Part shown: positions 4,593 to 49,468 of the stretch, piece after piece
Numbering within the stretch: the first letter of the stretch is position 1
Layout: every line of letters starts with the position of its first letter
Source: an uncultured Chloroflexia bacterium
Lineage (GTDB): Bacteria; Chloroflexota; Chloroflexia; QHBQ01; JADMIH01
Assembly: GCA_963797095.1 (NCBI GenBank)
Contig: CAWCNY010000002.1
Coordinates: forward strand, 928,001 to 992,000
Direction: 5' to 3'
Length of the DNA: 64,000 nt
Position numbers and translations under genes: made by a program
The notes under the pieces: generated by a model
The model's input: only the letters and a program-made list of their open reading frames with translations
What the model was told of the DNA's origin: nothing
Databases searched by the model: none

Positions 4593-4737
4593 CGCCTTTG
4601 CCTCCTGTTTAGAGTATATTCTCATCACATGCTGATGCTCTGCTCTCCTTTTCCTCGAACCGTGCCACTATACAATGCGCAATTCGCGTTTATCAACCCA
4701 TTGAACTTTCTCTACCCTCACCCCACGCGCTACCGGC

Positions 4738-28888: not shown

Positions 28889-29153
28889 CAGGCGGCGCTC
28901 GATCTAGTTGCCGGGCAGCACCCCGACATCATCCTCCTCGACATGAAAATGCCCGGTATGGATGGCTGGGAGTTCGCCAGGGTCTACCACCGGACATACG
29001 ACCGATGCGCCCGATCATGGTCCTCACCGCCGCCCAGGATGCTTCCGCGCGAGCAGCAGATATCAACCTCAGAGCTATCTGTCCAAGCAATTCGACCTGG
29101 ACGAGCTACTGGCGCGGATGGCTGAAATCGCCAATATGCTTGGCGACAACTGA
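28889..29153 (+). pseudogene. Degraded response-regulator receiver domain
   Basis: HPDIILLDMKMPGMDGWEF, PIMVLTAA and YLSKQFDLDELL lie in three different frames; the N-terminus is missing. Confidence 0.75.
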
Positions 29154-29159
29154 GAACGC

Positions 29160-29552
29160 TTAGAGATCGGGCACGCTTCTTCCAGCCGGATAAATCAAAT
29201 ACGCCGTCCCACCCGAAGCTTGCAGCCACAGCTTCTCAAGTTCTGCCCGCTTATAGGTGCGCTGCACAGTCTCGTTGGCGGGCGCAGCCGGGTCGTTCAC
29301 AATCGGGTTGCCCTGTGCATCGAACCCAACCAGCACTATCAGGTGCCCATTGCTCGCCGCGATAGGAGCGCCGCTCAGTTGCCCCCTCCCCCAGCTAATG
29401 CTCATGATCACGGGCACGCCTGCCTCTATCCATTTTTCCGCCTGGGACATACTCTCAAATCGAGTCACAAACGCTTCCATGCCCTGGCTTGCCGCGTAGG
29501 CTGTATTGAACGGCCAGTTGCCGTGTCCCTAATACACCCGGTCGTAATCTCG
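29160..29552 (-). pseudogene. C-terminal remnant of a peptidase C39-like protein
   Basis: DYDRVY*GHGNWPFNTAYAA...GHLIVLVGFD...VNDPA, with an in-frame TAG and no N-terminal part. Confidence 0.7.
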
Positions 29553-29796
29553 GCATTTTGCACTCAACCTTTCCTGGCAAAGCAACGTAGCGAATACGGG
29601 CGGTCCAATGCATCCTCACCGGGAGTATAACACGGCTGGGCGTTTCCCATCTGGAACTGCACACCCTATAAACATAAAACATCCCAAATCTTAGATGCAG
29701 CTTCGCATGCGTGCAATCTACCTCTAGAATAGGCAAAAATGGGGGCGAAACCTCCATTTTCGCCTATTCTAGAAAGCCCCTCCCCAAATTATGGGG

Positions 29797-29997
29797 CTTT
29801 CAAGGGTAGGTTTCTGCAAAAGGGGGTGCAGGGGTACTCCCCTGACAGGGGGAGTGATGGGGGCAGTGGGGTGTCCCCCAACTCTTTCCCCACTATTTAC
29901 TCTCCCCTCTCCCCATTTTATGGGGAGAGGGGCCGGGGGTGAGGGGTTTTAGCCTGTACTCACCGGCGGATCTTCATGGAAAACCTACCCTTGAAAG
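29797..29997. mobile_element. MITE-like element (201 bp) with perfect 17-bp TIRs
   Basis: CTTTCAAGGGTAGGTTT / AAACCTACCCTTGAAAG, flanked by AAATTATGGGG / AAATTATGGAG. Confidence 0.7.
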
Positions 29998-30111
29998 AAA
30001 TTATGGAGAGGGGTTAGGGTGGGGTCTTGGGGCATCTTGATGCTCTCCTACGCACGATTTCAAAATTCTGGATGACCCATGATCCGGTTTAGCATTCAGC
30101 CGGCACGATCA

Positions 30112-33100: not shown

Positions 33101-33925
33101 TCCAACGGCGAGAAGAAGTTGAGTGCATAGCCGGGTCCGAAGCTATTGTGGTAAGTCGCTAGGCGATCCGCATGAGCCTGCCAGTTGAAGTTTGGGTCAT
33201 TACGCAAAGAGATAGTCAAATCGGCGCCAGGACCCCATATTGACAGGTCTTGGCCGAGTACCACGTTAGGCGCGTAAAGGTCGCGTAGGTGCGCCAGCGC
33301 CTGCCAGAAGTTGCGGAAGTTATCCGCCATGCCCGCCAGTTCTGGCATCCCTGATCCACCAACCTTGGTTGGTTGAAGGGCCGAGTTGTCGCTGGTGTTA
33401 GATGAGTTCCTGCATCATCACGCCATCCAGGTCAGGCTCGATATTCACGAATGCCGCTTGCCCGTCGTTCATCTGCTGCATCAGGACCTTGAAGTCGTTA
33501 TAGTAAGCCAGCATCGTGGATGCATCGTTCAGATTGCCGTACTCATCGTAGTGAGGGGCCGATTGCAAGATCATGTAGTACACAAACCCGGGCAGGTAGC
33601 CCGCCGAGCGGGATTGCGTTACATAGTTTCTCGCGTAGCTGCTCCCCCATGTCTGCCACCCACCGCCCGTATTCACCCCGCCTGCCAGGTACTGGTAGCG
33701 ATAGTCATACGGAACGCCGGAATGCATATCTGAAAGGTTGCCATTGAAGAGACCATAGCCGAAATGGCTAGGAAAACCTCCTGGAATCGGGGCCAGCGTG
33801 GGGCTGGCCGCCTTAACGGTTGGCAATATCTGCCCGCTCAACCCGGCTGCACCTGCAACGAGAAGAACGGCAATAGCCAGTAATATTCGAATGCGCTTGT
33901 TCAATTTAACTCCTTTCACCCGCAA
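30112..33925 (-). CDS. Large secreted multidomain glycoside hydrolase (N-terminal GH-like domain, duplicated CBM-like domains, GH5-like domain), frameshifted near 33405-33411
   Basis: Signal peptide in ORF 33398-33925; the protein continues in another frame (NSSNTSDNSALQPTKVGGSGM). GH5-like motifs LRGVN, QAEPH, VYSSHPY, VMVTEFG, IGWTAW; Thr-rich linkers. Confidence 0.75.
30122..32397. repeat. Identical 416-bp direct repeat (30122-30537 and 31982-32397) encoding the CBM-like domain
   Basis: Line-by-line identity at an offset of 1860 bp. Confidence 0.92.
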
Positions 33926-34402
33926 AGCCGTGTAAGACGTAGTTTGTATGGAGAGCCTTACCAGGGGGGGTGGTTATGCGCCGTGTATGCTTGGAGCGGC
34001 GATGAACATACAAGTTAAAGCAGCAGGCATGCCAGGTCCGGCGAACAGCCCTGTGCATGAATCCGCGAGCCTATTTTTGCGCCTGGGAAAGGCAAGCGCC
34101 TGTCGATGGGCACTTGCATCGATAGCGCTAGACGCCCTGAAAATCCTGTGGAATACTCGGTTGCTTGTCTAGCCTGTAAACTCTACCAAACGGCAACAGG
34201 CAGCCGCAATAGGAATTCTAGTGCAAATCGCGTAACCATCTGCACTAAGATTTCCTACGTAATCATCCGTATGAAGCGTCTGCCAGTGCTCACTCTGGGA
34301 CTAACGGCCATCAATTGATGGCGAAAACCACAATTCTTGAAACCGCTTCCGCCTCCGCGTTGTACACTCTCAAGGGGGATTATTTTCACCGGGGAGGAGC
34401 AA

Positions 34403-35347
34403 ATGGCAAATAAGCGGCTATTTCGTTTCGGCGTGTGCCCTGGGAGCGCGCAATCGCGCAAAGACTGGGTCGAGCAGGCACGCAAAGCCGAGGACCTGGG
34501 ATACTCAACATTTCTCTTTCCCGATCACTTCGTAAACGACCTCACCCCCGTCCCGGCCCTTTCAACAGCCGCCGAAGCCACCCGCACCTTGCGCGTAGGT
34601 AGCTATGTATTCGACAATGATTTCAGGCACCCGGCCATGCTCGCGAAAGAGGCTGCCACCCTCGACCTCCTCTCGGATGGGCGCTTTGAGCTAGGCATAG
34701 GCGCAGGCTGGCACGGCCCTGACTATGAGCAGACAGGTATACCATTCGACCCGCCGGGTGTGCGCGTCGGCAGGTTGGAGGAAGCCGTTGCCATAGTCAA
34801 AGCCTTATTCGGAGAAGAGCCGGTTACTTTCTCAGGCAAATACTACACCATCAATGCCCTGCTAGGACTCCCCAGGACCGTGCAGCGCCCCCACCCGCCC
34901 ATTTTCATAGCGGGTGGGGGCAAACGCGTCCTCTCCCTGGCCGCGAGAGAGGCCGATATTGTGGGCCTGCACCTCAGGACCTATGCCGATGGCAGTGGAG
35001 GCGATGTTACAAGCACCTCAGCCGATGCTACCCTCGAAAAACTTGATTGGGTTCGCCAGGCCGCGGGCGACCGCTTTGACCAGTTGGAATTCAACGTGCT
35101 GGTTCCCCGCATCGCCATTAGCGACAATCCCAGGCAAGCAGCAGATGAGATGGCCTCCAGGGCCAACCGCCCCGGCCTCACGCCCGAATTGCTGGCAGAA
35201 ACCCCCAACGCCCTCATCGGCACGGTCGGCAGCATTATAGAGACTCTTGAGATGAGGCGCGAGCGTTACCTCATCTCATACATAGCCATTCCCTACGATG
35301 ATATGGAGAACTTCGCACCGGTCGTCGCCCGCCTGAGCGGCAAATAG
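34403..35347 (+). CDS. LLM-class, probably F420-dependent, oxidoreductase
   Basis: FPDHF, FRHPAMLAKEAATLDLLSDGRFELGIGAGW, PPIFIAGGG. Confidence 0.9.
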   Translation: MANKRLFRFGVCPGSAQSRKDWVEQARKAEDLGYSTFLFPDHFVNDLTPVPALSTAAEATRTLRVGSYVFDNDFRHPAMLAKEAATLDLLSDGRFELGIGAGWHGPDYEQTGIPFDPPGVRVGRLEEAVAIVKALFGEEPVTFSGKYYTINALLGLPRTVQRPHPPIFIAGGGKRVLSLAAREADIVGLHLRTYADGSGGDVTSTSADATLEKLDWVRQAAGDRFDQLEFNVLVPRIAISDNPRQAADEMASRANRPGLTPELLAETPNALIGTVGSIIETLEMRRERYLISYIAIPYDDMENFAPVVARLSGK

Positions 35348-35420
35348 CCTGGCGACCGGTGCGATAACCGTACCCCGTAGCACCCTAAACGGAAAACATC
35401 TAGTCTGGTAGATCAACCGT

Positions 35421-35759
35421 CTACCTTGCCTCACTGTCTCCCCTTTTCAAGACTATCTCTTTTGCAATCGTGGCGGCGCTCATTGCGGTCGGCCAGCCCG
35501 AATAGCAGGCCAGATGGGTGATCGCCTCCACCAATTCATCCTTTGTAACGCCATTGTCCAATGCTCTTTCGATGTGGCCTCGCGGCTGTTCAGTGCGGTT
35601 TAGAGCAATCAGGGCACTCACCGTTACCAGGCTGCGGTCACGCTTTGCCAGGCCTGGTCGCTCCCAGATATCGCCAAAGAGGACATTGTCTGTCAATTCG
35701 ACCAGCTTAGGCGCGAAATCGCCGACCATCTTCTGAGCTTTAGAGGGTTCTTGATTCAT
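35421..35759 (-). CDS. Carboxymuconolactone decarboxylase family protein
   Basis: LFGDIWERPGLAKRDRSLVTVSAL and HLACYSGWP. Confidence 0.88.
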   Translation of the reverse strand: MNQEPSKAQKMVGDFAPKLVELTDNVLFGDIWERPGLAKRDRSLVTVSALIALNRTEQPRGHIERALDNGVTKDELVEAITHLACYSGWPTAMSAATIAKEIVLKRGDSEAR

Positions 35760-35808
35760 GTTTATTACCCCTTTTGGTGGCGCCTCAGCGTCGAGGATGC
35801 TAGCAATG

Positions 35809-36840
35809 TTAGGGGCGAATCATTACCTTGATAGCTCGGCGCTCGTTCATAGCGGCGTATCCTTCGGCCACTCGCTCCAGTGGTAACTCCAAGTCGAATA
35901 CACGCCCAGGGTTGATGCGACCCTCCAGAACATCGCCGAGGAGTTAAGGGATATAGCGGCGCACCGGTGCTACGCCGCCGCGCAACCCGATGTTCCGGAA
36001 AATCACGGTCTGGATAGGCACCTCGACACCGTGAGGGACCCCCACAACGCCGACAATTGAGCCAGGTCGCGCAATGCCGAACGCCGTCGCCATGGACTGG
36101 CCGGAACCGACACATTCAAGACGAGCATCGACGCCAACCCCATCCGTCAGTTGAAGAACTGCCTCGATCGCTGCGTCGCCTCGCTCGGCCACAATGTCCG
36201 TCGCACCAAAAGACCGGGCCAGCGCCTGGCGGGCCGGGTTACGGCTAAGGGCGATGATCCGAGCGGCGCCCAGCCGTCGCGAAGCAATGATAGCGCATAG
36301 ACCTACGGCGCCATCCCCTACAACACCCACTACACTGCCTTGCCTGACCCCAGCACTCACAGCAGCATGATGGCCGGTGCACATCACGTCGGAGAGCGCG
36401 ACAAGAGAGCGCATTGTTTCGTCCGAATGGCCGGAGCCAGGAACCCGGACGAGCGTGGCGTCGGCGAAAGGCACGCGCACAGCCTCCCCCTGGCCTCCGT
36501 CCATGCCGTGGTTCCCAAACGAGCCACCTGCAACGCAGTTCGACGGCCATCCAGCGCGGCAGTTTACGCACGTGCCATCGCAGTAGGTGAACGGGGCTAT
36601 TACGAGATCGCCTTTAGAGATCCCCTGCACCTCCGCCCCGACATCCTCTACCACACCGATGAACTCGTGGCCGATTGGACCAAGAGCGTGTGGCGACTCC
36701 CCACGGTAGTACCACAGATCTGAGCCGCAGATGCAGCCTAGCACCACCCGAACTACGGCGTCAGTTGGCTCAACAATCACGGGATCAGGCCGCTCACCGA
36801 CTTCTATCGAGTAGGGGCCGCCATAAATAGTCGCATTCAT
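35809..36840 (-). pseudogene. Zinc-dependent alcohol dehydrogenase with premature TAA at 35944-35946
   Basis: CICGSD, GHEFIG, CDGTCVNC, GDGAVG. The frame continues past TAA as LLGDVLEGRINPGRVFD...ERRAIKVMIRP*. Confidence 0.82.
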
Positions 36841-36887
36841 GGTTGTTTCCCTCCATTACATCGGAGCAGATATTCGAGCATAAGGTC

Positions 36888-36918
36888 ATTATATGCAAGT
36901 TAGAGCGCTCTAAGTCAA
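36888..36918 (-). promoter_or_regulatory. MerR-type promoter/operator for adh-cmd
   Basis: TTGACT-N19-TATAAT with the perfect dyad TTAGAGCGCTCTAA in the spacer. Confidence 0.85.
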
Positions 36919-37062
36919 GAGCCAGTTTTTTCTAGTAGACGGCAAGAGGCATCGCGGAAGCGGTGAATTCGCGCACCTGCATGATAGCAAGTTGACCAGC
37001 CAAGGTTATAGATCTCGAAAAGACCTACATTCGTGCTCAGATGTTTATTACAAACAAAGAAG

Positions 37063-37089
37063 AAGCCCTACCAAAACGGTAGAGCTTTT
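37063..37089 (-). terminator. Terminator hairpin; near-copy of the one downstream of tRNA-Asp
   Basis: AAGCCCTACCAAAACGGTAGAGCTTTT versus AAGCTCTACCAAAAGGTAGAGCTTTT at 46544. Confidence 0.75.
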
Positions 37090-37090
37090 G

Positions 37091-37104
37091 GGCGGAAGTG
37101 ACGG
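37091..37104. repeat. att-like copy 1 of the tRNA-Asp 3' end
   Basis: GGCGGAAGTGACGG is 13/14 identical to 46571-46584. Confidence 0.8.
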
Positions 37105-37233
37105 AGATTGCACCGTCACTTACGATCTTTCCAGCCTCAAGTTGCATCAGCAGCAAGAAATCGTTGAACCTATTCTACTCTTGCCTCATCCGAAAAGTCA
37201 AGGTCGGTATGCTGTACGGGTGCGCGCCATCGT

Positions 37234-38740
37234 TTAGGCGACTTTTCTGAGAGGGCGAGTTTTGGGCCAGCATTGCTCCCACCTCTCACTGAGCAGTTCG
37301 GCTCTCAGTGTCAGCACCCCTTGTGCTCCTGGTTTGCTCCAACACATGCCTGCTCCCTTGAGACGGGCACCAATCAGCCGCTTGCATGCACTCTCCACCG
37401 TGCCTGAACCAACTGGGAAGCCCAATGCCCGGTACTCGGAGTAGCGCATCCTCTCTTTGTTCGTCTGAAAGTAATAAATCTGCTCTCGTGCCGCTTCTCC
37501 CGCCTCCCCTTCACGTTTGCTCTCTCTGTGTAGAGCCACAATGACTGCTTCTACCCTTCCCTCCCATAATTCCTTCTCCCAACGCTTCACCCATCTTGCG
37601 GCGTCTGGTGTGCCCTGCCCGAAGATACCATTACCTGCTTGCCACAGGTGCTCCATGGCGTGATACCAGTCGAGTACCTCTACCCTGTTGGCAAAGTGCT
37701 CATCGAACTGTATCCAGTTGGTGGGTGCCCCATCTCCCAGACATACAACCTGCTCCTCAGGGCCTATCCCTCTCCTCCATGCTTCAGCACTCAACCGCTT
37801 TCCTGCCCGCTCCATCGAGCCGACCTCCGCCACATAGCTCTGATGGGTGGCTCTTGCCCCCTCTATCTCTCCTGCTTCGTTGTATGCAGGCTCGGCCCAA
37901 AACACCACTCCCGCTTTAGCGTCATGCCACCCATCTTCGTAGCGCACCTTGCCAGCGTCCAGCGTCGCCGCCCATGTGCCCAAGCCCAATGCTCCATCTG
38001 CAACCTTTGAACCTTTCTGAGAGGTGGGACTTGCCCCTAGCGTTTGATCTTCTGCTTGCAAGCTCTCCTCTCCTCTTGCAAGCTCTCCTCTCCTCTTGCA
38101 AGCTCTCCTCTCCTCTTGCAAGCTCTCCTCTCCTCTTGCAAGCTCTCCTCTCCTCTTGCAAGCTCTCCTCTTGCAAGCTCTCCTCTAATGTAAGCCCCCT
38201 CTGTTCAGTCATGCGCTCGGCTTCTCTTGGAGAGACCGACATGCCAGTGAGTACCTCCACTGCATGTGCAGCCTGCTCGAAAGGCATCTGCACACCCAGC
38301 AGGCACACTCCTTGTTGCACTCCGTCCGAGAAGTGTTCCCGTGCGGGTATGCCTAGAGCCTCATCCAGCGGGTAGCGTCCGGTGCCACACCCTTTACAGT
38401 AGAAGTAACCTCTCTCCAATGTGACCGTGCCTACCCATGTTTGCACAGTGCGCCGCTGCTTACCCTTGTACTGGGGTGTCTGCCCGCAGTCACACTGCTT
38501 GTGCCCAAGCAGCCATTCTTCCTCTATCATGGCACGATGCAGTTGGGCTGCGGCTTCTAAGGCTGAGGCGAAACAGTCCGAGCGCAGTTGACGTGCTCTT
38601 TCTTCGAGACTGCTCAAAGTAGCATCCGGGTTGCGTTGAGCATATATCCAAAGTTGTTTGACGAGCCCCTCAAATTCCTTCACAATACTAGTGAGGGCAG
38701 GTGACAGGTCGCAAACGGCCTGAAACTCGCTACTCTGCAT
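37234..38740 (-). pseudogene. ISKra4-family transposase frameshifted by an internal tandem repeat
   Basis: N-terminal part has CDCG...YFYCKGC...PLDEALG; C-terminal part has CLGDGAPTNW, LDWYHAMEHL and GSGTVESACK. Confidence 0.85.
38055..38184. repeat. Tandem repeat: 5 x 20 bp (CTTGCAAGCTCTCCTCTCCT) plus 2 x 15 bp
   Basis: Read directly from the sequence. Confidence 0.9.
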
Positions 38741-39038
38741 GATACCCTCCAGGATTTCGGCCTTAGCCGGGATGTCTTCACCTAGAGGGTATCATTTTTC
38801 TTTCCTTCCTAAAAGATGGCGCGCACCCATGCTGTACCACTTACCCAAATACCTAAAGAGCAATGGGAAGACGCGGTCCAGCGCCATAGGAAAGGCGAGA
38901 GCTTGCGGCAACCGGCAAAGGAATATGGAGTTTCACACGAAGCTATTCGGCAAGTTCTGATGCGATATGGCAGTCACGAGTTGTAAGGCTTCCCTGGGTA
39001 TCAGGAATACGTCCATTTGAGGATAAAGGTATAGGCCG

Positions 39039-41861
39039 TTAATTCAGCATCTTGTCTGGCTGAGTACGCACAATCACTGCATAAGCTACAGCGGCTTCCA
39101 TGGACATTGCCAACCCCGCTCGCCATGCCCGATCCCACGCGGCCTCGTCTAGCTGTGCCCTGGCGCTTGCCAGATGCCTGTCCCGCTCAATCTGCTCTGC
39201 TGGCCACATGTAAGCCCCTATTGCCGAGCGCAATCCTTCGGAAGCTCCAAAGAGGCGTGCCGCTCGCGTTGGATCGCCTTGCGCGCCCGCCAACGCCGCG
39301 AACCCGGTCAGGCACTCGGAGATGCCCTGTTTGTTGCCGATCTCTTGATGGAGCGTCAGGCTCTCCTTGAATAATGCCCCTGCTTTTGGGTAATCCCCTT
39401 TAGCAAGTGCTACATAGCCCAGGTTGTGTAGCACACCCGGGATATCGCTCGTCCCCCCTTGATCCTGGAACAAAAGCAGACTTTCCTCATAGAATGAGCC
39501 TGCTCGCGGGTAATTGCCCTCGATACGCGCTATATCGGCCAGCAAGGCGGACGCCTGAGCCATCCCGTAAGGATCTCCCACTTCTCTGGACAGCGCCCTA
39601 CATTCCTCCCAAGTGGACCTGGCTACTGAGTAATCTCCATGCATGAAAGACAACATTCCCGACGACATCAGCCCAAGTACCAGCCCTGGCTTGCCTTCGT
39701 CTCCTAGCTGGCGGAACAGTTTCACCCCTTCTGAATTTATCGTGCGTCCTTCCTGGTCTCCTCCAAACGCCATAGTGACTCCCAAACTAGAACGTGCATA
39801 TGCCAACCCTAGCTTATCTCCCAACTCTCGTGAGATAGCTGTGCTTTCCTCAAGCAGAACCTGCCCCGCCGAGGGGTCGCCCTGCAAAAAGGTCATGTAG
39901 CCTGCGGCGTACAAGGCCCTTGCTCGTAATTGGGTAGGCTCCGGCACACCCGGCAATAGCGCCTCCATCCACCGCCGCCCTTCACTCAGGTGGCCTCGCA
40001 TCTGCCAGAAAAGATGGAGCGCGGTGGCGATGCCCAAACCTACCTCTTTATCACCTACGCTGCTGAGGCTCCATTGGAGGGCTGCCCGCATATTGTCGTG
40101 TTCGGTCTCCAGCCTTTGCGCGGCTTCCTTCTGCCTTAGGGTCTGAATAAGCGGTGCGCATTCTTCGGCCACCTGCAGAAAGTAGTAAGCATGTGCTCGT
40201 CGCATGATGCTTATCTCGCCCCGCTCTTCCAGGCGCTCCAGCGCGTACTCGCGTATTGTCTCCAGCATCATAAAGCGAGATTCAACATGTGTGCCATCAA
40301 CCTGGCGTAGCAGGCTCTTATCATTAAGTGAGGCTACTCCGTCGAATATATTCATTTCGAAGGGGGCCAGTTCGTCCGGCGTAGAACCAGTATGGGTGGG
40401 CAACGAACGGCCTGCAGCAACAGCCTCAGCCGCCTCGAAAGTGCAACCGCCCATGAAAACGCCCATTCGGCGAAATAAGGTGCGTTCGTCGGACGATAAC
40501 AGATCGTAGCTCCAACCGATCGCGCATCGCAATGTCTGCTGACGAGCAGGCAGGTCACGCCCTCCACCAGTCAACACTTTCAGGCTGCTCTCCAACCTGG
40601 ATAGGATAGCCTGTGGAGTAAGGAGCTTAACTCGGGCCGCCGCCAACTCGATTGCCAGCGGCAGCCCATCAAGACGAACACAGATCTCGGCTATTATCGG
40701 GGCATTTTCGTTCGTCAGATCGAAGTCCGGTTTTACATCTCTGGCGCGCTCGATGAACAGGCGAACACTTTCAAAATCGGTCAGGTTCTCCAACGTGGGA
40801 GAATGGCGTAGGTCTGGCAGTTGCAAAGGAGGTGCCGGGAACTCTTTCTCACCGTATATATGGAGCACCTCGCGGCTCGTGACTAGCACCTTCAATTGAG
40901 AAGCGTCAGACAATAGTTCGCTCACTACCTGCCCCGCGCTGGACACCTGCTCGAAGTTGTCCAATAAGAGCAATAGCTCTTTCTGACCCAGATAGGCTTT
41001 CAAGCTTTCTATGATAGGCCGATTCCCATCTCCCATGAGGCCAAGTGTCTTAGCAATAGCTACCGGCACGAGGGCGGGATCGGTCAAAGCAGCTAGGGGC
41101 ACAAAGAAGACCCCATCACGAAAGCGGTCGAGCAACATTTCGCCCACTTGAAGTGAGAGGCGAGTCTTACCCGTGCCACCTGGGCCTGTGAGGGTTACAA
41201 GACGCACTTGCGGTCTGGCAAGTATCTCCTGCGTTAGCTCGACTTCCTTCTTCCTACCAATGAAGTCGGTTCGCTGAACCGGCAGATTGTTTGGGCGTGT
41301 ATCCAGCGTCTTGATGGGAGGGAAATCAGAAGGCAGATCGTCAACAACCATCTGGAAGACATGTTCCGGACGTTGCAAGTCCTTCAACTTGTGATCTCCC
41401 AGGTCGCGCAATCCGACCCCCTCCGGCAGATTATCGAAAACCAACTGATAGGTCGCACCAGTAAGCAAGATCTGTCCCCCATACCCGACAGCGAGCAAGC
41501 GCGCTATGCGATTCAGATGTGGTCTAACGTAATCACCTTCCCTTACCTCACCGGGACCGGTATGCAAAGCCATTCTCACCTTGATTGGAGCTACGCGGGG
41601 GTCCCATCTCTCTTGATGCAAAGCGCGCTGCGCGGCGAGCACCGCGCCCAGGGCCTGGGGCGCTAATACGAAGCAAGCGCAGAACGCATCGCCCATCCTT
41701 CTGAAGACTACGCCTCTGAATGCTTCGATGGCTTCCTGCAGTATGGCATCATGTCTCTCGACGGCCGCCTTCATGGCGCCCGGATGCTGCTCCCAGCGCA
41801 CGGTGCTGCTCTCGATATCAGTGTACAGGAACGTCAGAGTTCCAGTTGGTAGTTGCAACAT
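39039..41861 (-). CDS. Class III adenylate/guanylate cyclase domain + STAND/NB-ARC-like ATPase + TPR protein
   Basis: TFLYTDIESST, MGDAF, RMALHTG; TLTGPGGTGKTRL, LLLDNFEQV, LDGLPLAIELAAAR; TPR-like C-terminus. Confidence 0.9.
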   Translation of the reverse strand: MLQLPTGTLTFLYTDIESSTVRWEQHPGAMKAAVERHDAILQEAIEAFRGVVFRRMGDAFCACFVLAPQALGAVLAAQRALHQERWDPRVAPIKVRMALHTGPGEVREGDYVRPHLNRIARLLAVGYGGQILLTGATYQLVFDNLPEGVGLRDLGDHKLKDLQRPEHVFQMVVDDLPSDFPPIKTLDTRPNNLPVQRTDFIGRKKEVELTQEILARPQVRLVTLTGPGGTGKTRLSLQVGEMLLDRFRDGVFFVPLAALTDPALVPVAIAKTLGLMGDGNRPIIESLKAYLGQKELLLLLDNFEQVSSAGQVVSELLSDASQLKVLVTSREVLHIYGEKEFPAPPLQLPDLRHSPTLENLTDFESVRLFIERARDVKPDFDLTNENAPIIAEICVRLDGLPLAIELAAARVKLLTPQAILSRLESSLKVLTGGGRDLPARQQTLRCAIGWSYDLLSSDERTLFRRMGVFMGGCTFEAAEAVAAGRSLPTHTGSTPDELAPFEMNIFDGVASLNDKSLLRQVDGTHVESRFMMLETIREYALERLEERGEISIMRRAHAYYFLQVAEECAPLIQTLRQKEAAQRLETEHDNMRAALQWSLSSVGDKEVGLGIATALHLFWQMRGHLSEGRRWMEALLPGVPEPTQLRARALYAAGYMTFLQGDPSAGQVLLEESTAISRELGDKLGLAYARSSLGVTMAFGGDQEGRTINSEGVKLFRQLGDEGKPGLVLGLMSSGMLSFMHGDYSVARSTWEECRALSREVGDPYGMAQASALLADIARIEGNYPRAGSFYEESLLLFQDQGGTSDIPGVLHNLGYVALAKGDYPKAGALFKESLTLHQEIGNKQGISECLTGFAALAGAQGDPTRAARLFGASEGLRSAIGAYMWPAEQIERDRHLASARAQLDEAAWDRAWRAGLAMSMEAAVAYAVIVRTQPDKMLN

Positions 41862-41936
41862 GGTGAACGCATAATAGCAAAAACGTCCGACTTTGGCACG
41901 GGTACAAACAGGTGTTCCCCTACCCTCTTCAGAATA

Positions 41937-41970
41937 CAAGTAAGCCAGTGGCATACCACTGGCTTACTTG
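41937..41970. terminator. Hairpin adjacent to att copy 2
   Basis: CAAGTAAGCCAGTGG-CATA-CCACTGGCTTACTTG, a 15-bp perfect stem. Confidence 0.7.
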
Positions 41971-41978
41971 ACATAACT

Positions 41979-42236
41979 TGCGGAAGCGACGGGGATTGCA
42001 CCGTCAATTACGACTTTTCGTCTCTAAACCTGCACGAGCGACAAGAAATCCTTGATCCTATCTTATTCTCACCACGCAAGAAAAGTCAAGGTCGGTATTC
42101 CATGCCCCTCACACACATTCCGGAGGAGCAATGGGAAGAAGTGGCTCAACGCCACGTGAACGGCGAGAGCCTGCGCCTGTTAGCGAAGAGCTACGGAGTC
42201 TCGCATGAAGCTGTGCGGCAGGTTGTCAAGAGATAA
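41979..42236 (+). CDS. att-linked HTH protein tail, copy 2 (no start codon at the core; frame open from 41853)
   Basis: CGSDGDCTVNYDFSSL...GESLRLLAKSYGVSHEAVRQVVKR*; HTH-like pattern SLRxLAxxYGVSHExVR. Confidence 0.65.
   Translation, partial: CGSDGDCTVNYDFSSLNLHERQEILDPILFSPRKKSQGRYSMPLTHIPEEQWEEVAQRHVNGESLRLLAKSYGVSHEAVRQVVKR
41980..41993. repeat. att-like copy 2 of the tRNA-Asp 3' end
   Basis: GCGGAAGCGACGGG is identical to 46572-46585. Confidence 0.85.
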
Positions 42237-42298
42237 CTCCACTATTGAGGAGTAGTGAGACTTAGGAACGTCGATAATTCTGAAATAGTCCGGAAAAT

Positions 42299-42337
42299 AG
42301 CCAGTCCTGACAGAGATAGTTCCTCAGGACTGGCTGG
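42299..42337. terminator. Hairpin between the convergent HTH tail and cupin genes
   Basis: AGCCAGTCCTGA...TCAGGACTGGCT. Confidence 0.55.
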
Positions 42338-42366
42338 GTTAGAGTACGGTGAGCATACCTCTTCTC

Positions 42367-42837
42367 TCAATCAGGGCTTAGGGGCGGTCCAAGCAGGGAC
42401 ATATCATGTCTATCGAAAACCGCTGCAACGTCCTTCGGGTCGGGCTTGCCGTTGCGCGTAAGAGGCCCAAGCTCTTCGTAAAACCTGTGTCCACCGCCCG
42501 GTGTGTACACCACGATGATCTCGGCTGTCTCATCGGTCAAGTTTACAAAGGCATGCGGCACCTTTGATGGAAGGTATGCAAAGCCTCCTTCGTTGAGGTG
42601 GAAGATGTCGTCACCGATTCGAACCTTGAACCGGCCTTTCAGCACATGAATGGTCTCCTCCTGTATATGGTGAACATGTAATGGAGGTCCGTTTTTCGGT
42701 GCCACCTGGACTACAAAATAGTCCAATGCTCCGCCGGTATCGTCGCCGGTAACCTTGAAAATGAGATCTCTGCCCGGACCCGATTGGAGGATCAAACCCT
42801 CAGCTTCGGCAAGGACCTTGTATCCAGTCGTTATCAT
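42367..42837 (-). CDS. Cupin domain protein
   Basis: GPPLHVHHIQEE...PSKVPHAFVN; AAGGAG RBS. Confidence 0.9.
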   Translation of the reverse strand: MITTGYKVLAEAEGLILQSGPGRDLIFKVTGDDTGGALDYFVVQVAPKNGPPLHVHHIQEETIHVLKGRFKVRIGDDIFHLNEGGFAYLPSKVPHAFVNLTDETAEIIVVYTPGGGHRFYEELGPLTRNGKPDPKDVAAVFDRHDMSLLGPPLSPD

Positions 42838-43051
42838 CTTCAACTCCTTATTGAAACCGGTTATTTTCTTCATAGCGGTCACCGGTCTTTCCAATTCCGG
42901 TCGCGCTTACTGTTCTGACTATACTGGGTCGTCCTCCCGCAAATCTCCCAAAAACCTCTCAAACCATCTCTCAGGCCTCAGGTCGGTTTGCTTTGGGCAG
43001 AATTGGGCGTATAATTCAGCTAAAGAAGCGCGTTGCTACAAGAAGGCCAAC

Positions 43052-46000
43052 ATGCTCAAGATCTACCTGCTAGGCGATTTCTCAGTACACCGCGACGGCA
43101 TCCCCATACCCGCCGCCGACTGGGCGCGCCGTAAAACCAGGTCGCTTCTCAAGCTGCTGGCGCTCCAGCCAGGACACCGGCTGCACCGAGAGCAGGTCAC
43201 CGAATTGCTGTGGCCCGACCTCGATCCGATTGCTGCTCGCGACAACTTCTATCGAAACCTTTCGTTCCTCCGCCATACGCTAGAACCTGAGCTCGAGCGC
43301 CCGGCTGATTCCCACTTTGTGAATCTGCAGGCGGAGATAGTAAAGCTTGGCCCACCGGATGAGGTTTGGATAGACGTGGACGCCTTCGAGAGCCTTATCG
43401 CTCAGGCCCGTACTACGGGGCAGCCGCTCCCGTTGCTTGAGGAAGCGCTGAGTCTCTATACGGGCGATCTTCTGTCGGAAGACACCTATGAAGAATGGAC
43501 TATCTCGCGTAGGGATCTCCTATCGAGGGCAGCGATCAAGGCATTGTTGCAGATAGCCGAAGCGCGGCGGGAAGAGGTGGCCTATGAACCGGCTATCGCC
43601 GCCCTGCAGCGCGTTCTCTCTCTGGATCGCACCGACGAGCAGGCCCACCGTGAACTGATGCGCACGTTTGCGCTCTCCGGACGCCGCCAGGATGCACTGC
43701 GCCAGTACGAGCAGTGCTGTAAGGTGCTGCAATCAGAACTGAACGTGGAGCCTGAGGCGGAAACCACCGGCCTGTATGATAGCATCGCAAGGGGCGATAT
43801 GGGCAGACGCTTCACCCCTGCGGTGCCTGGTGTGCCAGCCGGGCATGCAGCTGCTCGGCCACAACTCCCCGGGACGACTGAGTCTTTGAATAATCTGCCG
43901 GACATTGGCACGCCCTTGATAGGACGCGAACGTGAGGTAGCAGAAGCATGCCGCCATCTGCGCCGCCGCGAGGTGAGACTGCTCACGATGACCGGCACGG
44001 CGGGCATCGGAAAGACCCGCCTCGCTGTTGAAGTAGCGCACGCCCTGATCGAGGACTTTCGGGATGGTACGCTCTTTGTGCCCCTGGCCCATGCCCAGGA
44101 CGCCATTCAAGTGTTCCCGGCCATCGCGCAGGCACTTGGGCTGAAAGAGGACGGGGACCGCCCTTTGCCGGAGAGCCTTCAGGCTTTCCTGCGCCATCGA
44201 CAACTTCTGATTGTGCTGGACAACTTCGAGCATGTGATCCAGGCGGCCTCCGCTCTCGCCCAGGTCCTGTCCGCTTGCCCCGGCCTCAAGTTGCTCGTTA
44301 CCAGCCGGGAACTGCTACGCCTCACGCTGGAGCACGATTTTCCGGTTCAACCCCTGTCGTTGCCGGACCTGAACCACCTTCCGCCGCCACAGGACCTGGG
44401 CGACTATACATCTATTTGCCTGTTCTTAACCAGAGCCGCCGCTGTGAAGCCTGGGTTTGCACTCACATCTGATAATGCTGTGGCTGTGGCCGAGATTTGC
44501 AGCCGGTTGGACGGGCTACCTCTCGCTATCGAGCTTGCCGCGGCGCGGGTGCGTCTCCTAGCGCCCCAAGCCCTGCTGGCGCGGCTGAGCAACCGCCTGC
44601 GCCTGCTCACCGGCGGGGCCCGCGATCTGCCCGAGCGCCAGCAGACCATCTACAAGGCTATCGATTGGAGTTACGGTCTCTTGAGCACAAGGGAAAAGTC
44701 GATTTTTGCTCGCTTGTCGGTGTTTGTCGAGGGGTGCACGGAGGAGGCTGCTGCTGCGGTCTGCTACGACCTGGAGAGCGTAGGCGACCTTGGTGCCCTG
44801 GACGACCTCTCGCTGCTTGTAGATAAGAGCCTCCTGCGGTCGGAATCGGAGATCCAGAAACCGGGGGCTGTCGGGGCGGGAACCGGATCACTCGCAAACG
44901 GATACCCTGAGTCGCGGTTCAAAATGCTCGAGACGATCCGCGAATACGCTTCGGAGAGACTGACCGAGAGCGGAGAGTTGGCCGGAACGCAGGCGCGCCA
45001 CGCCCGATATTACCTGTCGATCGCCGAGGCGGGCGAAGATAACTGGTTCACTGCCGAGCAGCACTACTGGCTGGAGAGGTTTGATCAAGAGCAGTACAAC
45101 TTCCAGGCAGCACTGGTCTGGGCGATCCGGAGCGACCTAGAGGTGGCGATCAGGTTTGGCGGCGCGCTCTGGCACTACTGGCTGGCGCATGGGTACCTCA
45201 CGGAGGGGAGGCGATGGCTTGAACAGGCCATAGCGGAGGTGCCGAGATCAGAAGATGCAGCGCTCGGTCCAGACAGGGCCGGGCGCGCGAAAGCGTTATT
45301 CGGGGCGGGTGTGCTGGCGACTCACCAGGCGGATTATGCCCGCGCCGGCGAGTTGATCGCCCAATCGCTCGGCGTCGCCCGCTCGATCGGCGATGACTTA
45401 CAGATAGCCAATTCCCTCGCCGGGCTTGGGATTAGCATGTACTACCGGGGCGAGTACGATCGCTCGATGTTGCAGTTCGAGGAGGCACTGCAAATCTTCA
45501 GGCGGCTAGGGCACACACGTGGCACGGCCCTGGCGCTGAATAGTCTGAGCGACGCGATCCTATGCCTGGGGGACAGTACGCGCGCTTCGACCCTGGCCGG
45601 GGAGAGCCTGAATCTGTCGCTAGGCATTGGGGACAGTTTCTCCGTGGCTGCCTCGCTAGCCAACCAGGGCCGGGCGCTCCTGCAGCAAGGGGACATAGAG
45701 AAAGCCCTAGCTCTCTTTGAGGAGAGCCTGGCAATTCGGGTCAAGCTGAAGGACAAGGGGGGCATGGCCCACACTCTCAATCTCCTTGGAAACGCGGCCC
45801 TCGCTCGCGGGGACATCACTGGGGCGTCAGGCTTCTACACCCAGAGTCTCACGCTGCGGCATGAACTGGGCGACAGAGAGGGCATGGCAGCCCCATTGGA
45901 GGGGCTGGCTGCCGTAGCGGAAAGGCTTGACTACGTTGAAAGAGCCGCCCGGCTCTACGGCGCTGCCGAGGCGCTACGGGAGGCGATCGGTGCGCCCATT

Positions 46001-46144
46001 CCGCCCACGGACTTCGGACTGCATAGTCGAGCTATTTCCTCGCTGAAGTCACGTTCGGAAGGAGATGCCATAGCCGCAGAATGGAGGATGGGGCGGGCTC
46101 TGCAGATAGAGGACGCAGTATCTTACGCCCTCTCTGAGGGCTGA
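43052..46144 (+). CDS. SARP/AfsR-like regulator: wHTH + BTAD + STAND ATPase + TPR
   Basis: IYLLGDF, LLWPD, IDVDAFE, LYTGDLL, EQAHRELMR; TGTAGIGKTRL, VLDNFEHV, LDGLPLAIELAAAR. Confidence 0.92.
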   Translation: MLKIYLLGDFSVHRDGIPIPAADWARRKTRSLLKLLALQPGHRLHREQVTELLWPDLDPIAARDNFYRNLSFLRHTLEPELERPADSHFVNLQAEIVKLGPPDEVWIDVDAFESLIAQARTTGQPLPLLEEALSLYTGDLLSEDTYEEWTISRRDLLSRAAIKALLQIAEARREEVAYEPAIAALQRVLSLDRTDEQAHRELMRTFALSGRRQDALRQYEQCCKVLQSELNVEPEAETTGLYDSIARGDMGRRFTPAVPGVPAGHAAARPQLPGTTESLNNLPDIGTPLIGREREVAEACRHLRRREVRLLTMTGTAGIGKTRLAVEVAHALIEDFRDGTLFVPLAHAQDAIQVFPAIAQALGLKEDGDRPLPESLQAFLRHRQLLIVLDNFEHVIQAASALAQVLSACPGLKLLVTSRELLRLTLEHDFPVQPLSLPDLNHLPPPQDLGDYTSICLFLTRAAAVKPGFALTSDNAVAVAEICSRLDGLPLAIELAAARVRLLAPQALLARLSNRLRLLTGGARDLPERQQTIYKAIDWSYGLLSTREKSIFARLSVFVEGCTEEAAAAVCYDLESVGDLGALDDLSLLVDKSLLRSESEIQKPGAVGAGTGSLANGYPESRFKMLETIREYASERLTESGELAGTQARHARYYLSIAEAGEDNWFTAEQHYWLERFDQEQYNFQAALVWAIRSDLEVAIRFGGALWHYWLAHGYLTEGRRWLEQAIAEVPRSEDAALGPDRAGRAKALFGAGVLATHQADYARAGELIAQSLGVARSIGDDLQIANSLAGLGISMYYRGEYDRSMLQFEEALQIFRRLGHTRGTALALNSLSDAILCLGDSTRASTLAGESLNLSLGIGDSFSVAASLANQGRALLQQGDIEKALALFEESLAIRVKLKDKGGMAHTLNLLGNAALARGDITGASGFYTQSLTLRHELGDREGMAAPLEGLAAVAERLDYVERAARLYGAAEALREAIGAPIPPTDFGLHSRAISSLKSRSEGDAIAAEWRMGRALQIEDAVSYALSEG

Positions 46145-46540
46145 ATGCTATCCCCGCATGATTGTGGTGCGAGAGATTGAATACCCATGTGTGCACAAAA
46201 GCGCGTGCAGAAGTCTTTAGAGAGGAACCGGAACGCAACAACGAGAATAAGAGAATGCAGGCGCGAACAATCGAGCAGCAAAATAGATGGGCTTCCTCCG
46301 CTATTATACCAAGTTCGAGACTTTTGGCACTCACATTTGCAGTCCGATATACCCAACGTTTTTGAGACAGATCGCAATATGCAGCTTGCTATTAACCGGT
46401 AACCGGTGCCAGCCGTGCATGTCTCGTCAATAGTCGCGGAAGCGAAAAGATGACGAACCGACGATTACGACCTCTGCAAGGTCGCACTTTATCCACCAAT
46501 TACAGCCAAATTCGTGCGTGAGTTGCACTTGCAAATGTGA

Positions 46541-46569
46541 AAAAAGCTCTACCAAAAGGTAGAGCTTTT
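46541..46569 (-). terminator. tRNA-Asp terminator
   Basis: AAAAGCTCTACC-loop-GGTAGAGCTTTT immediately downstream of the tRNA. Confidence 0.85.
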
Positions 46570-46572
46570 CGG

Positions 46573-46646
46573 CGGAAGCGACGGGATTCGAACCCGCGGT
46601 CTCGGCCTTGACAGGGCCGCATGTTAGGCCACTACACCACGCCTCC
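46573..46646 (-). tRNA. tRNA-Asp(GTC)
   Basis: GGAGGCG acceptor stem, TGG D-loop, anticodon loop CT-GTC-AA, GGTTCGAATCC T-arm. CCA is not fully encoded (CCG). Confidence 0.96.
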
Positions 46647-46689
46647 ATTGCCCTGGCTTCACCGAAGCGAAACACATTTAGGCTTCATT

Positions 46690-46718
46690 ATATTACCAGA
46701 TAGCCCCCCTTGTGTCAA
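46690..46718 (-). promoter_or_regulatory. tRNA promoter
   Basis: TTGACA-N17-TAATAT with an extended -10 TG. Confidence 0.7.
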
Positions 46719-46816: not shown

Positions 46817-47752
46817 CTACCTGTGATGTAGTGTGCCCTGCCCCTGCCCGCGCACCCACGGTACCAACAGCAGCGCCCCGGCAACGATCAGGAACACGGG
46901 CCATATCTGCCCTATCAAGCTGTTGTTGATCAACACCACCGGCAGAAAAACCAACCCTATCACTCCGAATATAGCCGCAGGCACCAGGTAGCCTCTCTGC
47001 GTGCCGTTCGATAGCAGGTACGCGGCCAACGCACCCACTCCCACGATCAACGGGTAGATCGGCCACAACCTCCCCTGGTCCTCCCACGAGATGACGCCAA
47101 GCGTGGTCGCCAGGAAGAACACCCCCACCAGGAATGGGATGGAACCGGCAAGCACCAGGCCGCTCCGCACGCGCAGGTCGCCTACCAGCGCAGCTACAAC
47201 CAGCAGAGCCAGGCCCACTGCCATCGGATATACAGGCCACCACGTGCGCGCCCATTCACCCCCGAACCATGTGTCTATCCCGTACCGCTGCCACCAATCC
47301 CAATCGTACAGGATGCCTGACAACGTGGCTACCAGGAAGCTCACACCCAGCAGCACAAACAGCACGCCAACTACCAGCAGGCCGTTCCGTTGCAAACCCG
47401 AGGCAACATAGCTAACCAGCGCTGCCGCGCCCAGGATCAGCAAATAGAACGGCCACAATCGCTCCTGGTCTGACCACGATGCCAGCCCAAGCGTGAATAC
47501 GAAGAAGAAGGCTCCAAGCAGCAACGTGAAACTGCCAACCAGCACCGCCCATCCTCTCCGAATCTGCCCCACATCTCGCGTAATCAACACTTGCGCCATC
47601 GGGGCCAACCCCACGATCATCACGAATGCCGGCCAGATATTACCCCAGTTAAGCCCTCCGATTTCCATGGTTGCAGCCAGGAAAACCATGCCGAACAAAA
47701 TCAGGAACAGTGCGGCCTGCACAGTTCCACTACGCAAATTTCGTGTTTCCAT
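46817..47752 (-). CDS. Membrane protein with repeated LiaI/LiaF-like TM units
   Basis: Repeated xWP-hydrophobic units (NIWP, RLWP, WWP, QIWP). Confidence 0.7.
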   Translation of the reverse strand: METRNLRSGTVQAALFLILFGMVFLAATMEIGGLNWGNIWPAFVMIVGLAPMAQVLITRDVGQIRRGWAVLVGSFTLLLGAFFFVFTLGLASWSDQERLWPFYLLILGAAALVSYVASGLQRNGLLVVGVLFVLLGVSFLVATLSGILYDWDWWQRYGIDTWFGGEWARTWWPVYPMAVGLALLVVAALVGDLRVRSGLVLAGSIPFLVGVFFLATTLGVISWEDQGRLWPIYPLIVGVGALAAYLLSNGTQRGYLVPAAIFGVIGLVFLPVVLINNSLIGQIWPVFLIVAGALLLVPWVRGQGQGTLHHR

Positions 47753-48223: not shown

Positions 48224-48952
48224 TTATATGTATAGCTTAGGGCATATCCAGGCCGCATCCATTGATACGTCAACAGGTAACGAAAGGTTCAATGGACAAA
48301 TCTCGCACACCGGCCTCGGCTTGCAAATCCGCTTAGCATGCAGCACGATCAGCGCGTGATACTCGTTGAACAATCCCGCATCGTGCGGCAGGTTATCCAT
48401 AAACACTCTCTGCACATCATGGTACGAAGCATTGGGCCGCACCAATCCCCACCTTATACAAAGTCGCAGTGCATAGGCGTCCGCCACAAATACCGCCCGC
48501 CCCAGCGCATACAACAGAATCGCGTCTGCCGTCTCAGGCCCGATCCCTTTCAGGGCAAGCAATTTCCCCCTCAACTCCTCCACTCCATCGCCCGAAGCCG
48601 CCAGGGCCTCCGGCCCCCCATTCTCCACCACAAAACCGGCCAGCGTGCGAATCCGCTCCGGCTTCTGGGTGTAAAACCCCGCCGTGCGCACAGCCGCCGT
48701 TACTTCCTCCAGGGGCGCATCTATCAGTACCTCAGGCCGCCTTAACCCATCCGCCCCCCACCTCGTCTCAATATTGCCCAGAGCCACTTCAACGTTCCTC
48801 CACGACGTGTGCTGGGTAAGGATCGCCCCCAGCATGATCTCCCATGCGCTCCCGGTGCGCGTAGGCCACCAGCTTTGCGACCCGTAATAGGCCAGCAAAG
48901 CGTCATGGATTGACATTAGTAGACGATGTAGATAAGGATCTGCTTCAGACAT
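48224..48952 (-). CDS. Endonuclease III-related HhH-GPD DNA glycosylase
   Basis: GAILTQHTSW, LKGIGPETAD, and Fe-S motif CKPRPVCEICPL. Confidence 0.9.
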   Translation of the reverse strand: MSEADPYLHRLLMSIHDALLAYYGSQSWWPTRTGSAWEIMLGAILTQHTSWRNVEVALGNIETRWGADGLRRPEVLIDAPLEEVTAAVRTAGFYTQKPERIRTLAGFVVENGGPEALAASGDGVEELRGKLLALKGIGPETADAILLYALGRAVFVADAYALRLCIRWGLVRPNASYHDVQRVFMDNLPHDAGLFNEYHALIVLHAKRICKPRPVCEICPLNLSLPVDVSMDAAWICPKLYI

Positions 48953-48991
48953 GAGCGGTTTGCAAAGTGCATAACGAAAGATAGGACGGTT

Positions 48992-49468
48992 TCAGGGACC
49001 GGTGACCACTACGTCGGCCAGGAGCGCTCCGCTCTTGTCGGCGAGGACGGCAGGTTCGATAAGGAACAGCGCATCATGCGCCCCCGCCGCCGCGTAGATC
49101 ATCGGCCACCGCAGCATCCTCTCGTCCATCAGCTTCCTGATCTCCATCGCATGCCCCAGCGGAGGCACTCCCCCGATAGCATATCCCGTATAGCGGCGCA
49201 CATCCCCCACCGGTGCCATCTTCACACTTTCGGCCCCCACCAGCGCCGCCACCTTCGCCGCGTCCACTTTCCTATCACCTCCGCAAATCACCAGCACAGG
49301 CTCCCCATCCGCCATGAACAGCAGCGACTTAGCGATGGCTCCCACCTCGCACCCCACCGCCGCTGCGGCCTCCGGCGCTGTGCGCGTGCTCTCCGACAGC
49401 CTCACCACCTGCACATCTATCCCCTGCTCGTGCAGCGCCGCCTGTACCCGCTCCGGCCCGCTTGCCAT
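48992..49468 (-). CDS. YbaK/EbsC family aminoacyl-tRNA editing protein
   Basis: STRTA, IAKSLLF, TGYAIGGVPPLGH, YAAAG. Confidence 0.9.
   Translation of the reverse strand: MASGPERVQAALHEQGIDVQVVRLSESTRTAPEAAAAVGCEVGAIAKSLLFMADGEPVLVICGGDRKVDAAKVAALVGAESVKMAPVGDVRRYTGYAIGGVPPLGHAMEIRKLMDERMLRWPMIYAAAGAHDALFLIEPAVLADKSGALLADVVVTGP

Follow-up and report, generated by a model that had tools for sequence, protein, structure and literature searches.

A probable decayed array of elements integrated at a tRNA-Asp gene by large serine recombinases with the attachment site in their own reading frame

The window analysed here is a stretch of 64,000 nucleotides (nt) from the genome of an uncultured Chloroflexia bacterium (GCA_963797095.1, contig CAWCNY010000002.1, positions 928,001 to 992,000). 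It contains a tRNA-Asp gene and displaced copies of the 3' end of that gene (cores), each followed by a segment that codes for a helix-turn-helix (HTH) and is called a tail here. The locus is very probably a decayed tandem array of elements that were integrated at the tRNA-Asp 3' end by a large serine recombinase (LSR) carrying the attachment site attP inside its own open reading frame (ORF). Homology, a shared reading frame and the junction types in relatives are the observations behind this view. A preliminary description of the window had taken the units for minimal non-autonomous cassettes in an integron-like array. That part had to be given up, because each HTH tail was once the 3' end of an LSR gene and has been separated from it, the attP core lying within the ORF.

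Core copies of the tRNA-Asp 3' end and the tails behind them

The integration target, tRNA-Asp(gtc), is located at 46571–46646 on the minus strand (ARAGORN and Rfam, 63.4 bits), and its 3'-terminal 14 bases read GCGGAAGCGACGGG on the plus strand at 46572–46585. Core B is an exact copy (14/14) at 41980–41993 on the plus strand, just where the preliminary description had placed it. Core A (GCGGAAGTGACGGA, plus strand) agrees at 12 of 14 bases, with 2 mismatches, and is located at 37092–37105; its earlier placement at 37091 with 13/14 was one base and one mismatch off. When up to 2 mismatches are allowed, the 14-mer has 4 matches against a shuffle mean of 0.98, and 1 of 100 shuffles gave 4. The 9-mer GCGGAAGCG is also found in two degenerate core copies, at 36954 and 46436, and its 6 matches (shuffle mean 1.03) were reached in none of 100 shuffles. 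The two degenerate copies each begin a relic mini-unit on the plus strand. The one at 36954–37062 continues from the degenerate core GCGGAAGCG.. into the first part of a type-2 tail (..CGCACCTGCATGATAG..), and at 46436–46543, adjoining the tRNA gene, its counterpart consists of a degenerate core and about 95 nt. The two mini-units are homologous, and 36954–37105 has 108 identical positions in 169 aligned columns with 46436–46585. In the relative G012 (G numbers denote genomes, G000 being the window's own; L numbers denote loci or contigs, L041 belonging to G007 and L061 to G012), the relic mini-unit is 136 nt from its tRNA core, the same distance as in the window.

The cores delimit two units of 4.9 kb (37092–41993; 3.3 kb without an insertion sequence, IS) and 4.6 kb (41980–46585), and these sizes had been given correctly before. 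The window thus bears the Islander signature of an intact tRNA gene, a displaced 3' fragment in direct orientation and foreign DNA between them, and it has no on-board integrase gene of the kind that belongs to this signature.

Both displaced cores are followed by homologous HTH-coding segments, in agreement with the preliminary description. The sequence after core A is 76% identical to that after core B over 119 nt (E 1.6e-18), and the HTH-coding parts of the two copies are 70% identical over 131 nt (E 4.2e-10). Tail B is an 84-codon C-terminal fragment of an LSR gene at 41982–42236 on the plus strand (family profile E 2.5e-47), and its last 44 codons, beginning with an ATG at 42102, form an intact HTH. 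Tail A, also on the plus strand, is cut by the IS. Its first part (GSDGDCTVTYDLSSLKLHQQQEIVEP..KSQGRYA, 37092–37216, family profile E 2.3e-14) is a C-terminal fragment of an LSR gene without start codon, and its second part (..PLTQIPKEQWEDAVQRHRKGESLRQPAKEYGVSHEAIRQVLMR.., 38837–38986, E 6.3e-23) is the HTH. The two parts share one frame after removal of the IS and one duplication copy. A search of the genome with this segment, of the kind that had been proposed as a check, returned 16 rows. Three had E < 1e-9 (the query itself, and copy A in two pieces) and the remaining 13 had E >= 0.39, so the 6.0-Mb genome contains only the two segments.

The stretch between core and HTH is not a spacer but coding sequence. 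Thirteen in-frame copies share the pattern ..L(H/Y)E.QEI.DP..GRYS.PLT.IP.EQW.., and the four type-1 tails differ at 113, 94 and 242 sites at codon positions 1, 2 and 3. The HTH frame extends back through the core, which encodes GSDG in type-1 and RKRRGS in type-2 copies, and most tail copies lack a start codon. Among 5.8 billion proteins, 40 tail homologs were found, every one of at most 161 aa. Their N-terminal extensions are unrelated, so the conservation starts at the core-encoded GSDG or RKRRGS. A small RNA or pseudo-tRNA at 37089–37183, where ARAGORN reports a 95-nt tRNA-Gln, was considered as the main reading and rejected, because no Rfam family matches there, T-stem pairing is lost in the copies and the variation follows codon position.

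A tblastn search with the genome's own recombinases located serine recombinase domains at four distinct metagenome loci (L062/L076, L082, L088 and L094), in each case about 1.4–1.5 kb upstream of the module, by which we mean a core and an HTH with about 120 nt between them. In L082 a single ORF of 561 aa contains the Resolvase, Recombinase and Zn_ribbon_recom domains, then RGSDG, encoded by the core, and then the HTH. The same set of Resolvase, Recombinase and zinc-ribbon domains is present in L062. Tail B is 54% identical to residues 506–559 of the L082 LSR (E 2.4e-10), and tail A is 46% identical to residues 519–559. The continuous ORF of L082 and this homology together indicate that the tails of the window are the last ~85 codons of an LSR gene.

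A word-indexed search with residues 440–561 of L082 returned L082 itself only, and the fused forms were found by an exhaustive protein search with L082, which gave 65,232 LSR homologs, 22,761 of them with E <= 1e-10. C-termini were taken from the best 150 of these 65,232. Among these best 150, four end in GSDGIRTR.L.LDR.AC, five end in RKRRDSNPRS.., in which tRNA-Asp is read in the other frame, and seven have the core motif followed by the HTH. Reading of the tRNA in this other frame accounts for the type-2 tails.

Domain search found no match to PF00589 or PF00239 within the window, as expected from the earlier remark that no integrase is present. Elsewhere in the genome PF00589 matches at 27 places and PF00239 at 6. 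The LSR-body family has no tblastn match in the window or in its own genome (0 matches at E <= 1e-20). The complete set of Resolvase, Recombinase and zinc-ribbon domains is found in relatives, and the window has tails only.

Junctions and modules in relatives

If the core inside the gene serves as attP, an integrated element is expected to have its LSR body against the tRNA gene and its tail at the opposite end, and relatives show this arrangement. In G061 (contig C51) a full LSR, an ORF of 562 aa, runs through ..SGSDG into IRTRGLFLDREAC and a stop, and these 13 residues are encoded by antisense tRNA-Asp. At 32.9 kb to the left there is another full LSR, which shares 65% identity with the first and is followed by core and tail. 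This LSR-core-tail junction is the internal junction predicted for a tandem array. Two genomes of the window's own genus, G002 and G020, have open LSR frames of 553 and 556 aa, which end with ..CGSDGIRTRGLILDRDAC and a stop in tRNA-Asp and are 67% identical to the L062 LSR. At the corresponding place against tRNA-Asp, G011 and G015 contain partial LSRs. Only the LSR 3' end (..PEFTPLL..) and a hairpin are left against the tRNA gene in G003 and G007. In G002 and G012 an LSR 3' end is followed by core and tail, and in G004 an LSR pseudogene piece (residues 233–395) is found beside a tail. The relatives span every stage of decay, from intact LSR bodies at the tRNA gene (G002, G020, G061) to remnants of 48–160 aa (G003, G004, G007). 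The tally of LSR bodies, 7 of 26 genomes at E <= 1e-20, includes G021 and G022, both flagged as unpublished, and the claims made here rest on neither of these two. What marks a suicidal integrase, an attP inside the integrase ORF and a gene split on integration, is thus seen in relatives.

Close relatives of the tail show where the junctions differ. The homolog P0005 is 98% identical to tail B and has a left flank of the T0 type described below (VELSGGSDG), compared with LLDITCGSDG in the window. Junctions therefore differ exactly at the core between close relatives.

Of 25 further genomes of the genus, 13 contain the module, compared with 1 of 35 genomes from beyond the genus. This is the search of relatives that had been suggested, and where contigs permit the module is located near tRNA-Asp. 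At least six genomes of the same genus carry it a few kb downstream of tRNA-Asp, in 1–3 copies and with differing cargo, which bears out the earlier proposal that elements accumulated in tandem here as they integrated site-specifically into the 3' end of tRNA-Asp. Where contigs permit, the modules point away from the displaced core. The cargo between modules is unrelated across genomes and includes an Imm5-like protein, a two-component system, SIR2-like, Ham1, SDR, a DpnII/MboI-type nuclease, hydrolases and STAND proteins. No recombinase was found among 20 ORFs scanned between module copies in relatives. The flank on the 5' side of the tRNA gene is syntenic in relatives and the flank on the island side is not; the left flank (29000–37050) was syntenic in 0 of 5 relatives searched. 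Synteny with relatives is generally poor, at 65–75% identity. The comparison of the locus across strains, also suggested before, thus gave varying cargo and 1–3 modules, and junction types alone could be shown by comparing relatives, with no clean empty site demonstrable among them. The tRNA-Asp locus is a variable hotspot.

Among the 74 HTH rows, distant relatives included, 33 have a core 83–148 nt upstream of the HTH. The 41 rows without core are mostly below 45 bits or have little upstream sequence. Strong HTH matches with full upstream sequence yet no core, with up to 2 mismatches allowed, include the tail at 11153 of L041 (75 bits) and those of L045 and L086. On L099, a more distant contig, an intact tRNA-Asp is located on the same strand 87 nt upstream of a related HTH (4558–4811), an arrangement unlike all the others.

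The preliminary description reported a terminator-like hairpin immediately left of each core. Hairpins are visible at all three positions, although only the first satisfies the criteria of a terminator scan, which found 7 sites in total against 7.8 expected. This first one, a T0-type hairpin with an 11-pair stem, is located left of core A (37063–37087, minus strand). Together with core A it is 90% identical over 42 nt to 46544–46584, which covers the hairpin downstream of the tRNA gene. The second hairpin, termB, has 14-bp stems and lies directly left of core B at 41938–41969, and the junction of termB, core and tail is kept in G012, G013 and G019. The third, a T0 hairpin, lies directly downstream of tRNA-Asp at about 46542–46569 on the minus strand. 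It is present at the same position of tRNA-Asp in G004, G012, G014 and G019, and this junction resembles an unoccupied attB. In intact genes the hairpin left of the core is LSR coding sequence (for example ..DFHPTERQGGSRK.. in G020). We infer a terminator role for these hairpins: embedded in the 3' coding region of the LSR, a hairpin that has come to lie directly 3' of tRNA-Asp by integration probably terminates the tRNA transcript.

Course of events and competing explanations

Under the proposed mechanism, the attP core, equal to at least the last 14 bases of tRNA-Asp, would lie inside the integrase ORF about 85 codons before the stop, and the codons past the core would encode the HTH. Recombination within the core would split the LSR gene. 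The LSR body would land against the tRNA gene and read on for about 13 codons into antisense tRNA, and the HTH tail would be carried to the far end of the element, beside the sequence formerly downstream of the tRNA. At the next integration the new tail would be placed behind the old LSR body. Serial integration of this kind would leave core-tail modules in a single orientation with cargo in between. In the window, both LSR bodies would then have been deleted, and tail A has lost its start and been hit by the IS. The order of events in the window and the crossover position within the core are what we infer here. With both LSR bodies gone and no LSR of the family in the genome, the two units are relics. 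The absence of an integrase from the window is a matter of decay, and the locus is a decayed accretion array and not an integron-like system.

Several observations weigh against this mechanism. The tRNA-proximal junction of the window is not the 3' end of an LSR but an attB-like T0 hairpin, as in G004, G012, G014 and G019. In addition, a segment of about 150 nt, consisting of relic core, 95 nt, T0 and core, occurs twice in diverged form (36954–37105 and 46436–46585). The T0 junction and the doubled segment mean that simple serial integration with decay in place is insufficient and that an extra step is needed. Either a duplication or the entry of part of a ready-made array in one piece may have supplied it. 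To our knowledge, canonical LSRs recombine attP with attB only. Tandem integration into a hybrid site is then unexpected, yet G061 has arrays. The frame changes at the core between LSR and tail in L062 and L088, so some junctions are hybrid or the tail is sometimes a separate gene. Parts of the stretch occur in 20 public runs, the best sharing 0.23 of its words; recombination was not observed, and the contigs of 4 runs on 36900–46700 cover the IS and scattered pieces, none of them bridging a core. Finally, tail B, which has its own ATG, might be a working small regulator.

The alternative that survives best, although we consider it unlikely, is that of the preliminary description. Here the units would be minimal integrase-less cassettes, similar to cis-mobilizable elements (CIMEs), and an integrase encoded elsewhere would act on them in trans and still move one or several at a time, giving an integron-like array. 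The cores are exact (14/14) in most modules despite diverged tails. Unit B lies in direct orientation between an attP-like site (hairpin, core, tail) and an attB-like site (T0, core, tRNA), and intact LSRs are present in the genus. The different junction of P0005 exactly at the core would also fit such movement, and the duplicated segment of relic, T0 and core hints at the movement of a whole stretch of array at once. However, the tails are fragments of an integrase gene and not a dedicated feature of cassettes, the window's own genome is without an LSR of the family, the orientation of the cargo is mixed, and no integron integrase, attI or attC was found. No excision or circular junction was seen in the public-run contigs, which are too thin to reveal one.

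A tyrosine integrase was rejected as the enzyme of the array. None is present in the window, and the one located near the tRNA gene in G012 is taken as a chance neighbour in a rearranged flank. This tyrosine recombinase (G012:C9:166841-167374; L061 15449–16345), which has this position in G012 only, is encoded about 0.9 kb away from tRNA-Asp on the 5' side. It shares 65% identity with the protein that scores highest for PF00589 in the window's own genome (314-aa ORF at C6:310275). Fragments of a tyrosine recombinase are also found left of a core in L068.

It is quite improbable that domestication has turned the tails, or tail B at any rate, into small independent HTH proteins that regulate the STAND and SARP genes beside them, with the core now serving only as a 5' leader. 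The ATG of tail B at 42102 with its intact 44-aa HTH, the conservation of the termB-core-tail junction in four species and the STAND genes beside tails in the window and in L082 would agree with such a role. In contrast, the start codon is missing or stops are present in G003, G004, G012 and tail A of the window, the conservation reaches upstream of the ATG in the LSR frame, and other cargo next to tails (Imm5-like, two-component system, SIR2-like, restriction endonuclease, hydrolases) is unrelated.

Segmental duplication or homologous recombination of the chromosome without site-specific integration, to which the doubled segment of relic core, T0 and core and the paralogous STAND genes (~40% identical) would point, deserves hardly any credence, since the homology of the units is limited to core and tail and ends exactly at the core on the left, and the same break point divides LSR, tRNA, T0 and tail sequences in many genomes.

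Known systems, cargo and neighbouring features

An array of elements integrated by an LSR with intragenic attP resembles several known systems in part. In the SSV-type suicidal integrases of archaeal viruses and plasmids, the attP in the integrase ORF is a tRNA gene fragment, the gene is split to the two ends of the element, and the translated att site makes hybrid genes possible (PMC7253208). The same source describes these integrases as restricted to archaea so far and of the tyrosine type (PMC7253208). On this account, the position of attP in the integrase ORF, its identity as a tRNA fragment and the split of the gene by integration are shared with the elements studied here. In contrast, the enzyme here is a bacterial LSR, tyrosine recombinase domains being absent, and the split removes only the C-terminal HTH of ~85 aa and keeps the standard LSR domains together.

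The Islander paper states, citing Tojo et al. 1996, that the ORFs of the Mx8 and SSV integrases extend across attP (PMC4383910). Going by this statement, the IntP/IntX pair of the myxophage is similar in that a bacterial integrase ORF crosses attP and its C-terminus is altered by integration. The two differ in the enzyme, which is serine-type here. Mx8 Int is a tyrosine recombinase, and its target is a tRNA-Asp gene.

For islands at tRNA genes, tandem accretion and decayed integrase-less elements (CIMEs) that keep their att sites have been described (PMC4383910, PMC5704250). The window is similar in having a tRNA gene with 3' fragments in direct orientation and decayed elements without recombinase; att sites are retained as the cores, and the recombination gene, the LSR, is gone. 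It is unlike them in that the linked integrase is an LSR.

The LSRs of the Bxb1/phiC31-type phages have the same domain set of Resolvase, Recombinase and zinc ribbon, and likewise a short block of identity at the crossover. A C-terminal HTH, an intragenic attP, a tRNA target and tandem arrays set the present family apart from them. With integrons the locus shares an array of gene units, a recombination site repeated between units and one fixed position. Unlike integrons, it has no IntI, attI or attC, its units have mixed orientations and their own regulators, and its site is a tRNA fragment in an integrase remnant. No PF00589 match was found in the window and the site lies within a coding frame, attC folding not being separately tested.

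A literature search found no description of a serine integrase that targets a tRNA gene or carries attP within its own gene. The word 'tRNA' is absent from the main text of Durrant et al. 2022, although the supplementary LSR target tables of that study may list such cases. The integrase family, serine-type, tRNA-targeting and with attP in its own gene, may thus be new. A wider interpretation is offered only tentatively. In it, a bacterial LSR family with tRNA target and intragenic attP would exchange its HTH for ~13 residues of antisense tRNA-Asp on integration, so that two forms of the protein would report the state of the element, LSR-HTH when excised or at an internal junction and LSR without HTH when integrated. 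This might act as a directionality switch; arrays would shuffle hybrid integrases, and relic core-tail sites, those of the window included, would still let incoming elements land or leave.

Integration at tRNA genes is usually assigned to tyrosine integrases, and self-splitting integrase genes to the archaeal tyrosine type. A serine-integrase family in soil Chloroflexia that does both would broaden both pictures. It would also provide a new signature for island-finding software, namely a piece of tRNA gene that shares its frame with an HTH tail, and a natural LSR that gains or loses a DNA-binding domain with its integration state. Such domain switching would bear on directionality control in LSRs used as genome-engineering enzymes. 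Taken alone, the window is more modest, a decayed island array with STAND-type regulators, and its interest lies in the integrase family that it exposes.

The cargo of unit A is a STAND NTPase of 971 aa (NB-ARC and TPR; 39039–41954, minus strand), which converges on tail A. Unit B carries a cupin-domain protein (42367–42894, minus strand) and a SARP-type STAND regulator of 1129 aa (BTAD, NB-ARC and TPR; 42755–46144, plus strand), whose true start is probably downstream of 42894. An ortholog of this regulator, 73% identical, adjoins a cupin gene in G013, and the 971-aa and 1129-aa proteins are paralogs of ~40% identity. In L082 (4715–7522) a 935-aa AAA_16 ATPase converges on the intact LSR tail in the same way as the STAND NTPase on tail A. 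Large AAA/STAND ATPases may thus accompany these elements repeatedly, as passengers or as partners.

The Imm5-like gene occurs at 7306–7866 of L041 (G007), at G012:C9:123386-123945 and in the window's own genome at C6:243545-244126, and is behind an LSR tail in two of these cases. It has 89–91% DNA identity among three species that otherwise differ by 25–35%, and therefore looks recently transferred.

Directly after the stop of the SARP-type regulator, GCATGATTGTGGTGCGAGAGATTGAATACC at 46158–46185 resembles the last codons of the HTH tail (compare 42205–42241). In a contig from the X3 run, from a related strain of ~92% identity, 46162 is joined to 42242 through 31 letters that resemble a tail end. 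The block of cupin and SARP genes may therefore have tail-end flanks, and the related strain may carry it in duplicate or in circular permutation. To the right of the array, a gene for a LiaF/LiaI-like membrane protein (46817–47752) is located between tRNA-Asp and conserved right-flank genes (48224–49468), and it is absent from that position in G003, G004, G007 and G014.

The IS in tail A (37217–38828, minus strand) encodes a UPF0236-type transposase as two overlapping ORFs. It is flanked by an 8-bp target duplication, ATGCTGTA, at 37209–37216 and 38829–38836, and its ends are found at 12 or more other places in the genome. The transposase frame is broken around a 20-bp tandem repeat (38050–38180), and an insertion of 19 letters at 38179 is seen in one public run. 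Both tails contain a conserved promoter-like site on the minus strand, at 37201–37172 and 42089–42060, which points at core and hairpin and consists of TTGACT, a spacer of 18 nt and TAGAAT or TAAGAT. An antisense RNA of ~75 nt that starts there and ends at the hairpin is conceivable, but it is just as possible that the site merely results from the sequence coding for KSQGRY.

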